From NCBI GenBank assembly GCA_963747575.1, contig CAVVFU010000003.1, positions 269,557-333,556 on the forward strand: a stretch of 64,000 nt of DNA. The letters are read 5' to 3'. The translations under genes and the position numbers were made by a program. Shown piece after piece: positions 10,805 to 27,932 of this stretch. The notes under the pieces are model-generated. The model saw nothing but the letters and a program-made list of their open reading frames with translations. It had not been told where the DNA came from and did no database searches. Within the stretch, counting starts at the first letter, position 1. Each line of letters begins with the position of its first letter. The DNA comes from an uncultured Gemmataceae bacterium. Its GTDB lineage: Bacteria; Planctomycetota; Planctomycetia; Gemmatales; Gemmataceae.

Positions 10805-11252
10805 ATGAGCGAGGATTATCCACCCACCGTCATTGTTCGGCATTCCAGGGAGAATCCGCAAGTGCTCGATTTTGCCGTTGCGCGGCCGACCCGGCATCGT
10901 CATTCTCGGCTATCCGGTCAAGAAGATGCCGGACTTGACCAATTATGTGCGATTGGCCGCCGATGGGCCGGAGCTATCGCCGGCGGATGCTGCCAGCGGC
11001 CTGCTGCTGCTCGACGGCAGCTGGCGCTGGGCTGGCGCCATGACACGCCACTTCGAAAACGTGACGCCGCGCTCGCTGCACGGCTACCAGACGGCCTATC
11101 CGCGCGTCTCCAAGCAGGGAACCGACCCCGACAACGGCTTGGCGTCGGTCGAGGCGCTTTACGTCGCTTATCGCATTCTCGGCCGGCCGGTGGAGGGGTT
11201 GCTCGATCACTACCGATGGCGCGAGGAGTTCTTGCGCCAATGTCAGGCTTGA
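10805..11252 (+). CDS. DTW-domain protein (tRNA aminocarboxypropyltransferase-like), probable frameshift near 10860-10890
   Basis: LLLLDGSWRWAGAMTRHF = DTW-type DxSW motif, C-terminal LASVEALYVAYRILG; N-terminal VIVRHSRENPQ is in a different frame. Confidence 0.45.
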
Positions 11253-11378
11253 AAGCCCGACCTACGGTTGACAAATCCCACGGAATCCGTATCAATTCGT
11301 TTACGATCCAGCGATTGAACATGGATAAGTTCCTTTACGGTCATGGGCGGCCAATGCCATCCTGGGGGACCGTGCCTG

Positions 11379-12209
11379 ATGAGTGTGTCGAACAACGCTG
11401 AATGCCGAGGCGTCCTGTCTCGAGTTTACGCTCTTTATCGCGATTATTTTGATCTCGCCGAAAAAAAGCGGCGCTGGCGGCTCCGCGAGGACATTCCCTG
11501 GCATCAGTGCAACCCCGGCGTCACGCTCGCGCTCGCCGATGTCGTGCAGACTCTTTGCGGCATCGAAATGTATTTGCCCGATTACCTCGGCAAGCTTATC
11601 CCGCAGGTGCGCGCCAGCCGTGGCCTGACGTGGTTCCTGGCCACCTGGGGCTACGAGGAATCGAAACACTCCCTGGCCCTGGGCGATTGGCTGCTGCAAT
11701 CCGGCCAGCGCACCGAGGAAGAGATGGCCGACCTCGAGGCCTTTGTGTTTTCCAAGGCGTGGCGTCTGCCCAATGACAGCGCCCTGGGCATGCTTTGCCG
11801 CATGATGCTCCAGGAACGGACCGCCTGGCTGACGTACAAAAACCTGCGGACTCTCGTGGCCGGCACCGATCCCGCCCTGGATCGCACGCTTTACTTCCTG
11901 GGGATCGACGAATGCGCTCATTACGATTTTTGCCGCAGGCTCGCCCTGATTTACCTTGAAGATGACCGCGAGGAGACGCTGGAGCAGCTGCGAATGGCCT
12001 CCAGCGAATTTGCCATGCCGGCCCTGCGCCTGTTCGCGGACTCGGACCAGCGCGAACGGCAGCTCAAGGAATTGCGGCTGTTCGACGAGGATATTTTTTA
12101 CTTCCAGGTTTTCGAGCCGACGCTGGCCGATCTTGGCCTGACCAGGAAAGACCTTCGACAGCGTCAAGACAAGCGTGAAATCATGGCCGTGAGTTACTCG
12201 CCGACATGA
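11379..12209 (+). CDS. soluble acyl-ACP desaturase (plant-type diiron FA_desaturase_2 family)
   Basis: Motifs LPDYL, WGYEESKH (EExxH), LQERTAWLTYKN, LGIDECAHYDF (DExxH) match the stearoyl-ACP desaturase / DesA1-like pattern; 8 nt upstream of KS-like gene. Confidence 0.8.
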   Translation: MSVSNNAECRGVLSRVYALYRDYFDLAEKKRRWRLREDIPWHQCNPGVTLALADVVQTLCGIEMYLPDYLGKLIPQVRASRGLTWFLATWGYEESKHSLALGDWLLQSGQRTEEEMADLEAFVFSKAWRLPNDSALGMLCRMMLQERTAWLTYKNLRTLVAGTDPALDRTLYFLGIDECAHYDFCRRLALIYLEDDREETLEQLRMASSEFAMPALRLFADSDQRERQLKELRLFDEDIFYFQVFEPTLADLGLTRKDLRQRQDKREIMAVSYSPT

Positions 12210-12216
12210 GGCGACC

Positions 12217-13497
12217 ATGCATACTACCCAGCGACGCACTGTCATCACCGGTTGCGGAGTCGTGGCTCCGCCCGGCAGCGATTTGCCCGCATTCTGGGAC
12301 AGCTTGATCGCTCAGCGGAGCTGTGTCGCTCCCATTCAGGCCTACGACGTATCAACTCTTCCGGTGCGTTTCGGCGGCGAGGTCCGCGATTTCGACGCCA
12401 GGCTGTACATCGACAAGAAAGAGCGCAAACGGCTGGCGATCATGCCCCGGCCGCTGCAATTGGGAGCGGCCGCGGCGTTTTTGGCATTGCAGGACGCGGC
12501 GCTGGACAAAACCCAGCGCGATCCCGAGCGCTTTGGTGTGATCGTCGGCGGCGGCACCGTTCCGGCTGATCAGATCGGCCTCGCTCAGGCTGCCCAGCTC
12601 AGCACGGCCGGCCGGGGCAGGATCGACATGAAGAAATGGGGCTCGGTTGGCATTCCCACAGTGCCGCCGATGTGGATGCTTCATTTCGTGCCCAACATGC
12701 TCGCTTGCCATGTGTCGATCCTGCACGACGCGTGCGGGCCGGTGAACACGATGACGCAGACCGAGGCCGGCGGACTTTTGGCGCTGGGCGAAGCCTGTCG
12801 GATGATTCGCCGGGACAGGGCCGACGTCATTCTTGTGGGCGGGGGCGACAGCCGCATCAACGGCATCAGTGGCGTTCGCCAATGCTTGTTTGCACCGTTG
12901 TCGCGGCGCAACGAAAATCCGGCGGAAGCTTGCAAGCCTTTTGATCGCCGGCGCGATGGATCAGTCCTGGGCGAAGGCGGGGGATTCCTTGTTATCGAGG
13001 AACTGCAGCACGCGCGGCGGCGGGGCGCTCGGATTTGGGCAGAGGTCATTGGTTTTGGCGCGGGCCTCGATCCTGGCCGGAGCGGCGAAGGGCTAGGGCG
13101 GACAATTCGCCTGGCCATGACCGGCGCGAGCATCGCGGCTTCGGAGCTCGATCACGTCAACGCTCACGGACTCAGCACTCGCGAGGACGACGCCTGGGAA
13201 GCGCGCGGCTTGCGGCGCGGCGTCGGCGAGACAACATTGCCGGTCCCGGTCATGGCCGTCAAGAGTTATATGGGGAACCTTGGCAGCAGCAGCGGGTTGG
13301 TTGAGATGATGGCCAGTTTGCTCGCGCTTGACAAGGGCACCGTGCCGGGAACGCTCAATTACCGCCAGTACGATCCGGATTGTCCAGTCCATGTTCCGCG
13401 TGAGCCATGGGCGGCTGCCAAACGCTGTTTTTTGAAGGTCAGTTTGACCGAGTTGGGGCAGTGTGCGGCAGTGGTTTGCCGGCGGTGGGAGGGTTGA
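12217..13497 (+). CDS. beta-ketoacyl synthase-like protein lacking the catalytic Cys (chain-length-factor / KS-beta-like)
   Basis: Full KAS I/II fold, but at the active-site position GPVNTMTQTEAGGLLAL has Thr/Gln/Glu instead of TACxSG Cys; HGLST retained; KSxxGH is KSYMGNLG (His lost), as in type II PKS CLFs. Confidence 0.8.
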   Translation: MHTTQRRTVITGCGVVAPPGSDLPAFWDSLIAQRSCVAPIQAYDVSTLPVRFGGEVRDFDARLYIDKKERKRLAIMPRPLQLGAAAAFLALQDAALDKTQRDPERFGVIVGGGTVPADQIGLAQAAQLSTAGRGRIDMKKWGSVGIPTVPPMWMLHFVPNMLACHVSILHDACGPVNTMTQTEAGGLLALGEACRMIRRDRADVILVGGGDSRINGISGVRQCLFAPLSRRNENPAEACKPFDRRRDGSVLGEGGGFLVIEELQHARRRGARIWAEVIGFGAGLDPGRSGEGLGRTIRLAMTGASIAASELDHVNAHGLSTREDDAWEARGLRRGVGETTLPVPVMAVKSYMGNLGSSSGLVEMMASLLALDKGTVPGTLNYRQYDPDCPVHVPREPWAAAKRCFLKVSLTELGQCAAVVCRRWEG

Positions 13498-13504
13498 ACT
13501 CGGA

Positions 13505-13633
13505 GACGGCACATGGAGTGTGCCTACTGCGAAAAAAGACGGCACACGGAGTGTGCCTACTGCGAAAAAAGACGGCACACGGAGTGTGCCTACTGCGAAA
13601 AAAGACGGCACACGGAGTGTGCCTACTACTAAC
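13505..13633. repeat. tandem array of four 33-bp units GACGGCACACGGAGTGTGCCTACTGCGAAAAAA, each with a GGCACAC-GGA-GTGTGCC palindrome
   Basis: Direct tandem copies with no spacers, lying between KS-like stop (13497) and KAS start (13634); first unit has ACATGG variant, last unit truncated; related copies at 21276..21340, 27168..27182, 27905..27932. Confidence 0.8.
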
Positions 13634-14922
13634 ATGAATCGTCGCATCGTTATTACTGGGATGGGAGTTATTACGCCGCTGGGCGACAGCGTGGAAGGTC
13701 TGTTCGCGGCGCAGATCGCGGGGCGGAGCGGCGTCGGACCGATCACGCGCTTTGACGCCAGCACTTTTCCGACGACGTTTGCCGCCGAGGTGCGCAGATT
13801 TCGACCTGGCCCGCTACGTGCCGCGCTGCGAGCGCTGGCGTGACGCTGCCCTGAACAGCCAGTTCGCCGCCGCAGCCGCGCAGCTGGCACTGCGCCATGC
13901 CGGACTGCTTTTCGACACGCGCGTCGACCGCAACCGTTTCGGCGTCTACCTTGGGACCGGCGAGGCATTTACGAATTTTCATGGCCTGATGTCGATGCTG
14001 GTCGAAAGCTATCGCCCGCAAGAACAGGCCATAGACTATGCGGCTTTCGGCGCCGCGGGCCTCGAAATGCTCCAGGCAGGTTATGAGCTGGAGTTCGAGC
14101 TGCATCGCCCGGCCGGCCACCTCGGCGCTCACTTCGAATTGCGCGGCCCGAATGAAAGCTGCCTGACGGCATGCGCGGCCGGCAGCCAGGCGGTCGGCGA
14201 GGCCATGGAGCTGATCCGCGATGATGCCGCCGATATGATGCTGGCCGGCGGTTCGCACAGCATGGTTTATCCCCTGGGCGTTATGGGTTTCAACCTGCTG
14301 ACGGCGCTGTCGACCCGCAACGACGACCCGCAGCGCGCCTCGCGGCCGTTCGACCTGCACCGCGACGGCTTCGTCGTCGGCGAAGGCGCCGGCATGCTGG
14401 TGCTGGAGGAATTGGAGCATGCCCGACGGCGCGGCGCCGAGATTCACGCGGAGCTGACCGGTTATGGCACCAGTGCCGACGCCTATCGCATCACCGATTG
14501 CCATCCCGAAGGCCGCGGCGCCATCTCCTGCATGCGGGCAGCAATCGCCGACGCCGGCCTGGCGCCGGAGGACATCGGCTACATCAACGCCCACGGCACC
14601 AGCACCCAGGTCAACGACCGGGTCGAGACGCTGGCCATCAAGCAGGTTTTCGGCGACCATGCCGGCTAGGCTGCCGATCAGCAGCAGCAAGAGCATGCTG
14701 GGCCATCTGATCGCCGCGGCCGGCGCCGTGGAACTGATCATCAGCGTGCTGGCGATGCAGCGCGGCATTTTGCCGCCGACGATCAATTACGAAGAGCCCG
14801 ATCCCGCTTGCGATCTGGATTACATCCCCAACAAAGCTCGCGAGGCACGGGTGCGGCATGTGCTCAGCAACAGCTTCGGCTTTGGCGGGCAGAATGTGTC
14901 GCTGGTCGCATCGGGCATTTGA
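13634..14922 (+). CDS. beta-ketoacyl-ACP synthase (KAS II/FabF-like, intact Cys-His-His), reading frame broken twice (~13800 and ~14650)
   Basis: [17 protein letters not shown]; active site [14 protein letters not shown]; [13 protein letters not shown]; [15 protein letters not shown]; protein continuous only when ORFs 13463..13843, 13752..14669 and 14464..14922 are joined. Confidence 0.75.
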
Positions 14923-14949
14923 GTCGACGTGCGCCGTTTGGGAGCGGGT

Positions 14950-15030
14950 GTAGCGTAAGGAGAGGAGAAAGATCAAGAGTAGGACTAAGAGTAGGAAGAG
15001 GATTAGGAGGAAGATCAAGAGCAGGATGCG
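14950..15030. repeat. purine-rich (GA) low-complexity tract with short direct repeats (AAGATCAAGAG, TAAGAGTAGGA)
   Basis: aggagaggagaaagatcaagagtaggactaagagtaggaagaggattaggaggaagatcaagagcagg between convergent KAS and desaturase genes; locally lower GC. Confidence 0.4.
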
Positions 15031-15094
15031 TCGGACGTGAATCTGTCCTTCTCGTACTCTTACTCGTTTTCGGATTCGCACGGAGCGCAGGGCA

Positions 15095-15919
15095 TCACGT
15101 CGCCAGCGATTTCTTCACCTTCGGCCCGCGCAGCTCGCTTTTGGTGATACCCAGCACTTCCATGAAATGGGTATAGACATCCCGGAAGAAGATCTCCTCG
15201 TTGAAGATCTCCAGCTCGCGGATGCGGGCGATGCGTTTGGCGTTTTCGTCGAGCAAATCGTGAATGGCCGGCATCTGAAAATGGTTGAGCACGGGCCGCA
15301 TGGCAGCAATGGCGGCATCACGGTCCACTTCCATGAACAGCTCCATGAACGACTTGAACAGGCCGTAATGGGCGGCCTCGTCGACCGTCACCAGGTTCAG
15401 CAATTTCTCCAGAGCCGGGTCGCCGCCCTTGGCCTGAACGCGGGCGCGGAGATTGCGATAGTTCAGGAAGGTCGCATGCTCCTGCACCATGGCGTAGGCG
15501 AGCATGCCCAGGGAGCTGTCCTGCGGCAAGTTCCATTCGCGCTCGAAGACCTTCTCCTCCAGGTCGGCCATGTATTCCTCACTGCGATGGCCCGAACGCA
15601 GCAGCCAGTCGTTGAGCACCAGGGAATGCTTCGATTCCTCATAGCCCCAGTTGGCGTAAAACCACGACCGGCCTTTGCTGTTGCGAACCAGCGGCAGCAC
15701 CTTGGAGACATAATCGGGCAGATAAAGCTCGACGGCGCAAAAGGTCTCGACCACGTCGGCGATGGCGGGATCGAGATTGGGATTGCACTCGTTCCAGGGG
15801 ATGTCCTCGCTGATGCTCCAGCGTCGTTTCCGCTCGGCGGTGTCGAAGAAATCGCGGTAGAGCCGCCAAAGCTTGGCTTCGAGTTGTGGACTTTCGAGCG
15901 GTTCGAATCCTTGCATCAA
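15095..15919 (-). CDS. soluble acyl-ACP desaturase, paralog of 11379..12209
   Basis: Same motif set (LPDYV, WGYEESKH, VQEHATFLNYRN, VDEAAHYGLF); ~55% identity to the first copy; convergent with the KAS gene. Confidence 0.8.
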   Translation of the reverse strand: MMQGFEPLESPQLEAKLWRLYRDFFDTAERKRRWSISEDIPWNECNPNLDPAIADVVETFCAVELYLPDYVSKVLPLVRNSKGRSWFYANWGYEESKHSLVLNDWLLRSGHRSEEYMADLEEKVFEREWNLPQDSSLGMLAYAMVQEHATFLNYRNLRARVQAKGGDPALEKLLNLVTVDEAAHYGLFKSFMELFMEVDRDAAIAAMRPVLNHFQMPAIHDLLDENAKRIARIRELEIFNEEIFFRDVYTHFMEVLGITKSELRGPKVKKSLAT

Positions 15920-16303: not shown

Positions 16304-16594
16304 TTAAAGCATCCGCCCGCGCTGACGGGCAAGTTTGGCGCACAACCCGTATTGCTCGACAAGATTCCAATCCAGGGGCCAGATTCGCAGGTCATTCATC
16401 AGGGCATTTAAGGTTCTCCTGTATTGGCCGGCATCTGTCAGATAAACGATCCCTTCTTCCAGTTCACACAGCACGGACCAGCAGGTGGCCAGACGAAATC
16501 CCTGCCGCTGGGCTTGGCGCAGCCGTTCGCGCAGGGGAGAGACGGCTCGGATGGCGTGGCTCAAATGGTTAGTGTCGAGCAGGTAGCCTCTCAT
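16304..16594 (-). CDS. PIN-domain toxin (VapC-like), short and possibly C-terminally truncated
   Basis: MRGYLLDTNHLSHAI..CWSVLCELEEG PIN signatures; start ATG overlaps antitoxin stop (ATGA at 16591..16594); only 97 aa versus ~130 typical. Confidence 0.6.
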   Translation of the reverse strand: MRGYLLDTNHLSHAIRAVSPLRERLRQAQRQGFRLATCWSVLCELEEGIVYLTDAGQYRRTLNALMNDLRIWPLDWNLVEQYGLCAKLARQRGRML

Positions 16595-16863
16595 TGATCC
16601 AGGCCAAGTTTCATTCGAGCCAATTCCTTCTCTCGCCGGCGAATTTGTTGGATTGCGGCGTCCAACCTGGCGTCGTCTTCCTGATTGCCTTGGCGAGCGA
16701 TGGCCTCCACTTCGTTCATCCAAGCATCGGCGGGATGAATGTCCTTGGCAAAGGCGGTATTGGCAGCCAGTTTTTCCACGGCGACCTCTGTTCCCTCTTC
16801 CCAATCCTCGGGCAGGGGATCGCGTGGCAAAAGCACTCCCTTGGTCACGATGGCTTTGATCAT
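16591..16863 (-). CDS. antitoxin (DUF104/AF2212-like, PIN-associated)
   Basis: MIKAIVTKGVLLPRDPLPEDWEEGTEVAV resembles the PIN-partner antitoxin family; translationally coupled to VapC. Confidence 0.6.
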   Translation of the reverse strand: MIKAIVTKGVLLPRDPLPEDWEEGTEVAVEKLAANTAFAKDIHPADAWMNEVEAIARQGNQEDDARLDAAIQQIRRREKELARMKLGLDQ

Positions 16864-18336: not shown

Positions 18337-19431
18337 TCAGCCTGTGTCCGTTTTCACTTCGGCGGAAAGGGCATCGCGTTGTTTTTGCAAAGCAGCTATG
18401 TCGGCTCGCAAGCCGCTGACAATTTTTGCATGTCCTGCATCGCGCCAGGTGCCAATCAAACGCTCTTGATCCGTTCTGTTTGCCTCTTTTACTTGCGTCG
18501 TAGGCCGTAGCGAGTTGTTCTTGGCGGGTCCAACATCATTCCCCGTGTTCAGCGCAGGCGCGTATTGCACATAGCCGCTACCCAGGCCGAGTCCGCAAAC
18601 CGTCAAGAAAATCGCCGTCACGCATTTGAGCTTGGTCAACAACATGGTTTTCAACATCCTCTCCGCAAGCACTGTGGCCCGGGTTGACAGCACCGCCGCA
18701 CAGGCCGCCTTTCCGCTGGCAGCCAAAGCGACTGCTTTGATCGTGCCAGAAAGCACTGCGGTGGGCACGTTCGCCGACGCCGTGCTTTTTGTCAGCAGCA
18801 TCGCCAATGAAGCGGCCGACACCGGCAAGCCGTGGCGGGCGAGCCGTTTGGCCAGCAAGGCCCTGGCCCGCGCTAGCCGGGCGGAGAGCGTCCCCTGCGG
18901 GCAGTTCAGTTGGCGAGCGGCTTGCTTATGGGTCTTGCCCTCCAGATCGCAAAGGACGATGGCCGCTCTATAGATTTCAGGCAACCGCTGCAGCTCGGCA
19001 TCCAAAAGCGGCTGCAAATCGCGCCAAACGTCTTCCTCGACTTGAGGCTCGGGCATGTCCGCAACCTGCCTTTCTCTCGCGCTTTTCCGGGCGGCCGTGG
19101 CACTGGCTTTGCGGGCCGTGTGATAGGCCACGCCGTGCAGCCAGTTGGCGACCATTTCACGCGGCATGATCGATGCCGCCTTGCGAAATAGGATAAGAAA
19201 GGTGGCCTGGAACGCGTCCTCGGCGTCGTGGTGCCGGCGCAACAGTCGCCGGCACACGCCCCAGACCATAGGGCCATGGCGGCGCACCAACGCTTCAAAA
19301 GCCGCCGGTTCGCGACGGCTGAGGTAATAGTCGAGCAGCTGCCCGTCGGTCAAGCCGCCCCCATCGCGCAGCAGTGCTCCGCGCCGGAGCTGTTCGACGA
19401 GCTTTGACAAAGGACTTGTTGCCATGGCCAT
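18337..19431 (-). CDS. ECF RNA polymerase sigma factor fused to a C-terminal membrane-anchored extension
   Basis: Sigma70 region 2 ([30 protein letters not shown]) and region 4 ([26 protein letters not shown]), then hydrophobic helix ([14 protein letters not shown]) and tail starting RLIGTW (TIGR03067-like start). Confidence 0.7.
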
Positions 19432-19494
19432 TGCCCTTGAGTGGGTGATGCAAGCCTCCACATACAATTGCCTGGCCAACGGCAATTTCTTGCA

Positions 19495-21093
19495 TCAAAA
19501 TGAGGACAAAGCTGCCATCCCTATGCAATCTGCTCCCTCGGCGGCGGCTCCGTCGGCCGGATTCGATCCCCGTGCGCTGGCGCATGGCGATGCGGTTGAT
19601 GACCTGCAGAAACGCCAGGGCGCTGGCCTCGATGATGTCGGTGCTCGCCGCCGGCCTCGGAAGGTCTTGCCGTTGTACTCGACCTCGACGTGGGCCTCGC
19701 CCTGGGCGTCCTCGCCGATCGTGACGCTGCGCACCAGATAGTCGCGCACCTCGACGTCGATGCCGGTGATCCGCTCGATGGTCTTGAAGACGGCGTCGAC
19801 CGGGCCATCGCCGATGGCTGGCTTCGCGGTGGATCGTGCCGTCGTTGTGCCAGAGACAGACGGCCGCCGAGGGAATCGTGCCCGAGCCGGCGTTGCAGGT
19901 GACGGCCTCCAGCGTCCACATGGCCGGGCCGCTGTGGATCTGGTCCTCGGCCAGGGCTTCGATGTCGGCGTCGTAGATCGTCTTCTTGCGATCGGCCAGC
20001 GCCTTGAAGCCTCGAAGACGCGTCTGCAGCTGCTCGTCGTCGAGGTGATAGCCCAGCTCGCGGATGCGCTGCCGCAGGGCGTGCCGGCCGCTGTGCTTGC
20101 CCAGCACCAGCTCGGTCTGCTGCAGGCCGACGTCCTCGGGCTGCATGATTTCGTAGGTCGTGCGTTCCTTGAGCATGCCGTCCTGATGGATGCCGGCTTC
20201 GTGGGCGAAGGCGTTCTGGCCGACGATGGCCTTGTTGCGCTGCACCTGCATGCCGGTGATGTGCGACACCAGCCGGCTGGTCGGGCAGAGCCGCTGGGTG
20301 TTGATGCTCGTGGTGCAGGTTGAAGTAATCGGCGCGGGTCCTGCAGGGCCATGACGATTTCTTCCAGGGCGCAGTTGCCGGCCCGCTCGCCGATGCCGTT
20401 GATGGTGCACTCGACCTGGCGGGCCCCTTCTTGCACGGCGGCCAGGCTGTTGGCCACGGCCAGGCCCAGGTCGTTGTGGCAGTGGACGCTGATGACGGCC
20501 TTGTCGATGTTGCGGCACGTTCTTCTTGAGATGGCGAATGGCCGCCGCGTACTGCTCCGGCATGGCGTAGCCGACCGTGTCGGGAATGTTGACCGTGGTG
20601 GCGCCGGCCTCGATGGCGCGCTCGACGACCTCGGCGAGGAAATCGAGCTCGGTGCGGGCGGCGTCCTCGGGCGAGAACTCGACGTCGTCGACAATAGTCC
20701 TTGGCCCGCTTGACGCCCTCGACGGCCCGGCGGATGATCTCCTCCTTGGTCCATGTTGAGCTTGAACTCGCGATGGATGGCGCTGGTGGCCAGGAAGACG
20801 TGGATGCGCGGCCGGTCGGCGTCCTTCGAGCGCCTCCCCGGCGCGGTCGATGTCGTCGGCGTTGCAGCGGGCCAGGCCGCAGATGACCGGGCCGTGCGAC
20901 CTCGCGGGCGATGGCCTGCACCGCCTCGAAATCGCCCGGCGAGGCGATGGGGAAGCCGGCCTCGATGACGTCGACGCCAAGGTCCTTGAGCGCGTGGGCG
21001 ATCTCCAGCTTCTCGGCGCAGGTTCATGCTGGCGCCGGGCGATTGCTCGCCGTCGCGGAGCGTGGTGTCGAAGATGATCAGGCGGTCGTCCAT
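19495..21093 (-). CDS. leuA: 2-isopropylmalate synthase, coding sequence spread over three reading frames
   Basis: [23 protein letters not shown]; [30 protein letters not shown]; LeuA C-terminal regulatory domain ([21 protein letters not shown]); conserved segments alternate between ORFs 19495..21093, 19521..20921 and 19295..20980. Confidence 0.8.
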
Positions 21094-21275: not shown

Positions 21276-21340
21276 TAGTAGTAGGCACAGTCCGTGTGCC
21301 GTTTGCGAAAACAACGGCACACGGACTGTGCCTACTACTA
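21276..21340. repeat. inverted pair of TAGTAGGCACAGTCCGTGTGCC units (same family as the 13505 tandem array) separated by 15 bp
   Basis: tagtagtaggcacagtccgtgtgcc gtttgcgaaaacaac ggcacacggactgtgcctactacta; intergenic. Confidence 0.6.
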
Positions 21341-27904: not shown

Positions 27905-27932
27905 AACGGCACACGGAGTGTGCCTACTACTA
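27905..27932. repeat. single copy AAACGGCACACGGAGTGTGCCTACTACTA of the 33-bp repeat family, just downstream of ligA stop
   Basis: Identical palindrome to units at 13538..13633; partial inverted arm GTAGGCACACTCCG at 27168..27182 on the other side of the low-GC islet. Confidence 0.5.

Follow-up and report, generated by a model that had tools for sequence, protein, structure and literature searches.

What can two soluble diiron desaturase genes and two adjacent beta-ketoacyl synthase genes, one of which encodes a protein without the catalytic cysteine, be doing side by side in a planctomycete genome? The four genes occupy a 4.5-kb block (positions 11379-15919) of a 64,000-nucleotide stretch of contig CAVVFU010000003.1 from an uncultured Gemmataceae bacterium (assembly GCA_963747575.1); the whole stretch is referred to below as the window. 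A first-pass annotation, made from the letters alone, had assigned the block to one candidate lipid-modification pathway. Here, we arrive at a narrower proposal, to which we give a probability of roughly 0.55: the first desaturase gene (des1), the gene of the Cys-less ketosynthase (KSL) and the gene of its intact paralogue (KS2) form an operon, a KSL/KS2 heterodimer elongates a desaturated acyl-ACP (ACP, acyl carrier protein), and the second desaturase gene (des2) is unrelated. The trio probably serves as a compact module dedicated to a special unsaturated fatty acid. The genes were identified by listing of open reading frames (ORFs) combined with Pfam and NCBIfam profile scans, and every ORF of the 4.5-kb block is accounted for by the following features.

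11379-12209, plus strand: des1, a soluble diiron acyl-ACP desaturase paralogue of the ketosynthase-linked clade, 276 aa from the ATG at 11379.
Start at 11343, plus strand: the longest ORF of des1 in the ORF listing.
12217-13497, plus strand: KSL, a FabF-like ketosynthase paralogue with the catalytic Cys replaced by Glu and the second His by Asn.
13504-13627, no strand: a 33-nt REP-like hairpin repeat in 3.8 tandem copies, found by TRF.
13634-14922, plus strand: KS2, a FabF-type beta-ketoacyl-ACP synthase with the Cys-His-Lys-His set, its frame broken at 13796 and 14667.
15095-15916, minus strand: des2, an acyl-ACP desaturase paralogue of the solitary clade, convergent to des1-KSL-KS2.

The question of which genes belong together was approached by comparison with loci of other genomes, which are cited here by their L numbers. 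Between the des1 stop (12209) and the KSL start (12217) lie 7 nt, not 8 nt as the first-pass annotation had counted when it proposed a desaturase-ketosynthase operon; the operon itself is borne out by a gene order that is conserved across loci. In L006, the nearest relative with accurate sequence (its KSL is 74% identical), a desaturase gene, KSL and KS2 are followed by unrelated genes, and a second desaturase gene is absent. The same order with differing flanks recurs in L006, L016, L025, L034, L074, the P0299 contig, L091, L118 and L160. A desaturase gene directly 5' of KSL is a minority context, seen in the window, L005, L006, L016, L025, L034 and L074, and in further loci of metagenomic origin (the P0299 contig, L088, L090, L091, L094-L096, L099, L115, L118, L119, L131, L133, L145, L160 and L168).

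The two desaturases of the block behave differently in this respect. A neighbour-joining tree was built from 93 desaturase homologues, and linkage to KSL was scored in informative cases only: KSL lies directly downstream of the desaturase gene in 21 of 34 cases in the des1 clade and in one of 38 in the des2 clade (Fisher p = 3e-8). Orthologues of des2 (67-81% identity) were found away from ketosynthase genes at four loci from three relatives; these solitary copies comprise two metagenome loci with a common neighbourhood and the complete genomes of Tuwongella immobilis and Telmatocola sphagniphila. Because of this difference in KSL linkage, the solitary des2 orthologues and the trio in L006, the conserved unit is the three-gene operon des1-KSL-KS2, and des2 is, on comparative evidence, a chance neighbour outside the operon. 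Genes of the des1 clade are accordingly those predicted to be co-transcribed with KSL/KS2, here across the 7-nt gap. Thus, the desaturase-ketosynthase-ketosynthase-desaturase order that had been put forward for comparison among relatives is conserved in its first three genes, and the membership of des2 has to be given up.

The des1 and des2 proteins are assigned to the soluble acyl-ACP desaturase family by their Pfam matches, iron ligands and, for des1, predicted fold. As the first-pass annotation had recognized, they are paralogues (47% identity) encoded at the two ends of the block on opposite strands; they score 26.8 and 68.1 bits, respectively, on PF03405 (gathering cut-off 22.7, so that des1 is barely above it), with a match that is central only (model positions ~98-239 of 325). 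The EESKH and DE(C/A)AHY motifs are found in both proteins, and the six diiron ligands (E, ExxH, E, ExxH), read from a 35-sequence desaturase alignment, are invariant in it. The des1 ligands E75, E106/H109, E158 and E190/H193 (numbered from 11343) align with the castor ligand motifs. An AlphaFold (AF2) model of des1 (pLDDT 84.8) was compared with the PDB by Foldseek; the top 20 matches are acyl-ACP desaturases only, with TM-scores of 0.54-0.75, and include the castor, ivy and Thunbergia enzymes and M. tuberculosis DesA2, while R2-like ligand-binding oxidases (R2lox) rank after them. No grouping with another ferritin-like family was seen in these comparisons, and the family assignment made earlier from the motifs therefore stands.

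The castor delta-9 desaturase (1afr/1oq4), the ivy (2uw1) and Thunbergia (7t63/7pp7) enzymes and DesA2 (1za0) are of the same Pfam family and fold as des1 and have its six-ligand diiron site. In length, the planctomycete desaturases (~275 aa) resemble DesA2, whereas the plant enzymes have 330-360 aa, and the term "plant-type" holds for des1 and des2 at the family level only. The des1 protein aligns without gaps to a 276-aa homologue (68% identity), and a 273-aa JGI protein matches des2 completely (100% identity). Thousands of homologues exist, under the NCBI name of acyl-ACP desaturase; the family is common in this lineage, and its earlier description as uncommon in bacteria does not fit here.

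KSL is a full-length protein with the Pfam domains PF00109 and PF02801. Alignment to FabF structures places Glu at the position of the catalytic Cys and Asn at that of the second His, with the first His and the Lys retained; the loss of the Cys and of one His, as noted in the first pass, is thus confirmed, and no retained catalytic Cys was found. Among ~80 members of the KSL family, the Cys position is occupied by Asp or Glu in all, and the second His is usually Asn. The KSL scores of 290 bits on TIGR03150 (cut-off 493.75) and 289 bits on PRK07314 (cut-off 387) are below both fabF cut-offs, and, together with the broken triad, they imply that KSL is not a FabF. It is presumed to be a non-catalytic subunit similar to chain-length factors (CLFs) and, judged by its active-site residues, would be unable to form an acyl-Cys intermediate. 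An exact database look-up of the KSL protein returned no record.

KS2, in turn, is predicted to be the catalytic FabF-type condensing enzyme, with a complete catalytic set. Its interval of 1289 nt is not divisible by three and the coding sequence is spread over three reading frames, so that the "complete" synthase of the first-pass annotation is complete in catalytic residues after repair, but not as an open frame. Dropping one A (13796) and one T (14667) restores a 428-aa protein with Cys-His-Lys-His. The repaired KS2 aligns without gaps, including both repair sites, to the intact KS2 of L006 (80% identity); it scores 471.9 bits on PRK07314 (cut-off 387) and 492.9 bits on TIGR03150, just under the cut-off of 493.75. 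Both extra bases are missing from the sibling contig L005, which is 97% identical and has different indels of its own, and the housekeeping gene leuA (19295-21093) is likewise frameshifted in the window. Since L005 is free of the extra bases and leuA is also split, the KS2 frameshifts are most likely assembly errors. The assembly looks error-prone, and other split ORFs in the window should therefore be read with caution. The window and L005 differ by 107 gap openings in 17 kb. Across the family, the KS2 proteins encoded beside KSL carry Cys-His-Lys-His in 48 of 54 cases, i.e., in every row with readable active-site columns, the other six being gapped or fragmentary. At the gene level, KSL and KS2 are therefore a ketosynthase/CLF-type pair, an active ketosynthase and a Cys-less paralogue that are adjacent, co-oriented and co-inherited; the earlier proposal that the first ketosynthase is the catalytically dead partner of the second is supported by these data.

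The distribution of the pair was studied by a scan of one genome per species, and the best 80 loci were inspected in detail. A KSL gene was found in at least 597 species genomes, and the best 80 are all from Planctomycetota, with KS2 directly downstream of KSL in 53 of these 80 loci. The usual upstream context consists of genes for a FabZ-like dehydratase, a ketoreductase, a 130-aa ACP and a second FabZ-like dehydratase; the ketoreductase is absent in Isosphaeraceae and Phycisphaerae. The dedicated ACP of these clusters matches at 130-280 bits, versus 26-30 bits for acpP-type ACPs. Downstream of KS2, an alpha/beta-hydrolase gene follows in 30 loci, and a gene for a GH3-like adenylating enzyme comes next in 26 of those 30. 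Loci of the desaturase type are without the hydrolase and GH3-like genes that follow KS2 in 30 of the dehydratase-type loci. The 64-kb window yielded no ACP, ketoreductase or dehydratase of the cluster type, which extends to the whole stretch the earlier statement that the block has none of these genes.

An eight-gene arrangement of FabZ-like dehydratase, ketoreductase, ACP, FabZ-like dehydratase, KSL, KS2, alpha/beta-hydrolase and GH3-like enzyme is found in L007 (7474-15786). The same dehydratase-type cluster, without an enoyl reductase, is also found in L009-L014, L043, L048 (Singulisphaera) and others, and no published description of it was found.

When compared by eye, the trees of KSL and KS2 match each other, in keeping with an obligate partnership. 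The desaturase-linked KSLs, L025 excepted, make up one clade nested among dehydratase-linked Gemmataceae clades, and the desaturase context is therefore derived: in one Gemmataceae sublineage, the partners of the dehydratase-type cluster are gone from the locus and a desaturase gene precedes the pair. Among the best 80 matches, no further KSL locus came from the desaturase-type assemblies, which is only an indirect hint that these genomes may lack the ACP, dehydratase, ketoreductase, hydrolase and GH3-like genes elsewhere as well. In two Pirellulales loci, L080 (5769-11323) and L084 (5374-10049), a separate fabG-acpP-fabF set lies near KSL, and for this reason KSL/KS2 is regarded as an extra system rather than the sole FabF. 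The KSL of these two loci is solitary, without an adjacent KS2, and lies 1-2 kb downstream of the housekeeping fabG-acpP-fabF; such a KSL may pair with the ordinary FabF.

Pairs of an active and an inactive ketosynthase are known from several systems, with which KSL/KS2 was compared. The ketosynthase/CLF pairs of type II polyketide synthases (PKSs), represented by the actinorhodin (act, 1tqy), Iga11/Iga12 (6kxd) and AntD/E (6smo) structures, likewise combine an active ketosynthase with a Cys-less paralogue encoded beside it, a dead subunit whose presumed role is to shape the tunnel. PKS CLFs typically carry Gln at the ketosynthase cysteine position, whereas KSL has an acidic residue there, and PKS tailoring genes such as those for a cyclase or an aromatase are absent. 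Similarity to these proteins is also far below that to FabF. The best solved relative of KS2 is the T. thermophilus FabF (404 bits), in comparison with 277, 240 and 245 bits for the act ketosynthase/CLF, Iga and Ant proteins, and KSL scores 220 bits with FabF, 175 with the act ketosynthase and 128 with the act CLF. KSL as a type II PKS CLF was consequently rejected on account of the Asp/Glu at the Cys position and the higher scores of canonical FabFs, and the attribution of the pair to the type II PKS or aryl-polyene kind in the first-pass annotation falls with it. On these scores, KSL/KS2 is best described as a FabF-derived planctomycete lineage.

The rhizobial acpXL-fabZXL-fabF2XL-fabF1XL cluster, whose genes are documented in the literature, offers another comparison; it holds two neighbouring FabF paralogues together with a FabZ and an ACP of its own, makes a special very long acyl chain, and includes no desaturase. 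In gene content, this layout resembles the ancestral planctomycete cluster. PRK06501 and PRK06519, which we take to be rhizobial-type models, score far under their cut-offs.

The closest functional parallel comes from the same phylum. In anammox bacteria, amxFabF2 and amxFabFmut of the putative ladderane "Cluster I" were shown by biochemistry and structure to form a ketosynthase/CLF-like heterodimer, with malonyl-ACP decarboxylation activity and a preference for short chains (Granatino et al., bioRxiv 2026, doi 10.64898/2026.05.19.726425). The same preprint calls this pair the first chain-length factor of a fatty-acid pathway, takes the cluster as unique to ladderane producers, and lists in it, besides the FabF pair, amxACP, amxFabZ, a B12-radical SAM enzyme and a phytoene-dehydrogenase homologue (doi 10.64898/2026.05.19.726425). 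PDB entry 9s5h is probably the amxFabF2/amxFabFmut complex, as its molecule names and scores suggest. The anammox and KSL/KS2 pairs are alike in being FabF-derived and in having the dead copy directly 5' of the active one, and a dedicated ACP and a FabZ-like dehydratase are clustered with the anammox pair as they are in most Planctomycetota KSL/KS2 loci. They differ in the active site, since in amxFabFmut the Cys is replaced by Val or Thr and neither His remains, whereas KSL proteins have Glu or Asp and often retain the first His. KS2 also scores higher with canonical FabF (404 bits) than with 9s5h_B, the presumed amxFabF2 chain (317 bits). The 4.5-kb block has no radical-SAM or phytoene-dehydrogenase-like gene; no systematic search was aimed at such genes.

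A paralogue with the active-site pattern of KSL had been listed before: the Rhodopirellula baltica FabF paralogue RB4527 (NP_866153) has Glu163, His298, Lys328 and Asn333 (Rattray et al. 2009, PMC2649909). RB4527 appears to be a member of the same planctomycete KSL family, but in 2009 it was listed as an odd paralogue only, without a partner, context, function or link to a desaturase (PMC2649909). Our literature search found no paper on a desaturase linked to such a pair of an active and a dead ketosynthase, and none of use on acyl-ACP desaturases of planctomycetes or on the lipids of Gemmataceae.

Taken together with the anammox analogy, the gene content suggests how the trio could work. KSL and KS2 would heterodimerise as the anammox pair does, and KSL would shape the acyl-binding tunnel and so set which acyl-ACPs are elongated and how far, as chain-length factors do. 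The des1 protein, as a soluble O2-dependent diiron enzyme dedicated to the pair, would add a double bond either to the acyl-ACP before elongation or to the product of the pair, and the outcome would be a defined, longer monounsaturated acyl chain. The ACP, ketoreductase, dehydratase and enoyl reductase would be supplied in trans. The "unusual long-chain unsaturated lipid" of the first-pass annotation is, in this light, a reasonable guess.

Several observations weigh against this proposal. As it stands in the window, the KS2 frame is broken. By score, KS2 comes close to a canonical FabF, and it may homodimerise or serve bulk synthesis. In L088 (10001-12150), a desaturase-KSL pair has no KS2 within 10 kb and yidC comes next on the other strand; the KS2 of L088 may be located elsewhere in its genome. 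KSL scores about equally with the presumed amxFabFmut chain of 9s5h (153 bits) and with the active chain (160 bits), and the anammox likeness is therefore a parallel or analogy and not a demonstrable orthology. The des1 protein is only 14-17% identical to characterised desaturases, so that its chemistry could differ, and in its QERTAW motif (window 11808-11837) it has Thr-Ala beside the fourth iron ligand, versus QERATW elsewhere. In the main rival, which we consider unlikely, KSL/KS2 would be the housekeeping elongating ketosynthase and des1 a general membrane desaturase, with no special product. The KS2 score at the fabF equivalog cut-off, the T. thermophilus FabF as best solved relative, the phylum-wide occurrence of the pair and the position of the Pirellulales KSL just downstream of fabG-acpP-fabF would all agree with such a role. 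In most genomes, however, the pair comes with its own ACP, dehydratases, hydrolase and GH3-like enzyme; a distinct fabF beside acpP co-occurs with KSL in L080 and L084; and the solitary des2 clade, being more widely conserved, is the likelier candidate for bulk desaturation.

A different chemistry of des1, for example hydroxylation of the chain made by the ketosynthase pair by a diiron oxidase, is improbable, yet it is what the low identity to characterised desaturases, the restricted Pfam match (model 101-238 of 325 in des1) and the R2-like ligand-binding oxidases as next-best folds might lead one to suspect. The Thr/Ala swap affects the equivalent of castor Thr199 and might alter the enzyme chemistry; small changes in the soluble desaturase family switch the reaction outcome. 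The Ala-Thr order is kept in at least 90% of the family, and the swap is found in this species and its sibling, whereas the rest of the des1 clade retains Ala-Thr in the 35-sequence alignment; the six ligands and the uniform set of 20 desaturases at the top of the fold comparison also argue for a desaturase. The original idea of a dedicated four-gene pathway with two cooperating desaturases has been largely refuted and keeps little credibility. The genes des1, KSL, KS2 and des2 lie side by side both in the window and in L005 (97% identical), and two desaturase genes do precede the ketosynthases in L074 (205-4563; tandem des-des-KSL-KS2) and in L145 (3-2311; two tandem genes, then the KSL start, with the contig ending inside KSL). 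Both copies in both loci are of the des1 type, and the tandem pair is a lineage-specific duplication of the ketosynthase-linked desaturase; des2 lies on the opposite strand, its clade is all but unlinked to KSL, its orthologues stand alone in the four loci described above, two of them in complete genomes, and in L006 and on the P0299 contig the trio occurs with no des2 beside it. Least credible of all is a decaying module, in which KS2 would be a genuine pseudogene and the block a relic. The two +1 frameshifts and the REP-like repeat inserted between KSL and KS2 would suit decay, but a true KS2 pseudogene was rejected as unlikely, because L005 has neither extra base and carries different indels, leuA is frameshifted too, and the repaired protein aligns gap-free at 80% identity to the intact orthologue with all catalytic residues retained.

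A broader hypothesis can be formulated, which we offer as tentative and consider rather unlikely: the phylum-wide pair would make a specific unsaturated, possibly very long acyl product, and the trio would be a self-contained, O2-dependent replacement of the eight-gene dehydratase-type pathway, the Gemmataceae having swapped an O2-independent double-bond route for a desaturase. Among the fatty acids reported from Gemmataceae and Isosphaeraceae, C20:1 or the C30:1/C32:1 (omega-1)-hydroxy acids would be candidate products. Were this replacement hypothesis true, a function would be assigned to a widespread orphan cluster, and CLF-like FabF partners would be a general planctomycete trait and not a speciality of ladderane producers. 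The wider picture is that of a FabF/dead-FabF pair, whose dead member always has an acidic residue where the catalytic Cys would be, in at least 597 species genomes and in two alternative contexts, either with its own ACP, dehydratases, hydrolase and GH3-like enzyme or with a soluble desaturase only. The three-gene version is small enough for heterologous expression and thus provides an entry point to the product of the pair and to the specificity conferred by the dead subunit. Its value is that of a well-defined, testable hypothesis and not of a discovery.

The remaining features of the region are of a more local nature. The 136-nt spacer between KSL and KS2 is filled by the 3.8 tandem copies of the 33-nt hairpin repeat, with a GGCACACGGAGTGTGCC core, which also occurs dispersed in the window at 21278-21338 and 27908-27930. 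Its predicted RNA fold has a z-score of -7.8 and is terminator-like on the minus strand only, and among 87 loci compared the repeat is common to the window and the sibling L005 only. A role as a cluster-specific regulatory element was rejected; it is a dispersed REP-like genomic repeat that is absent from the other loci. A DTW-like gene upstream of des1 (10833-11252), with a Pfam match under the cut-off, was likewise rejected as a member of the module, as it is kept in the two closest relatives only. The neighbours of the block in the window include genes for DUF1559 proteins, an ECF sigma factor and WD40 proteins, which, like the closest homologues of the block's proteins, point to a Gemmataceae source. 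Just past des2, on the minus strand, the interval 16304-16863 contains two overlapping small ORFs, one with a weak PIN-domain match (22.7 bits, under the cut-off of 23.6) and the other of 90 aa without a Pfam match; these two ORFs may be a toxin-antitoxin pair.

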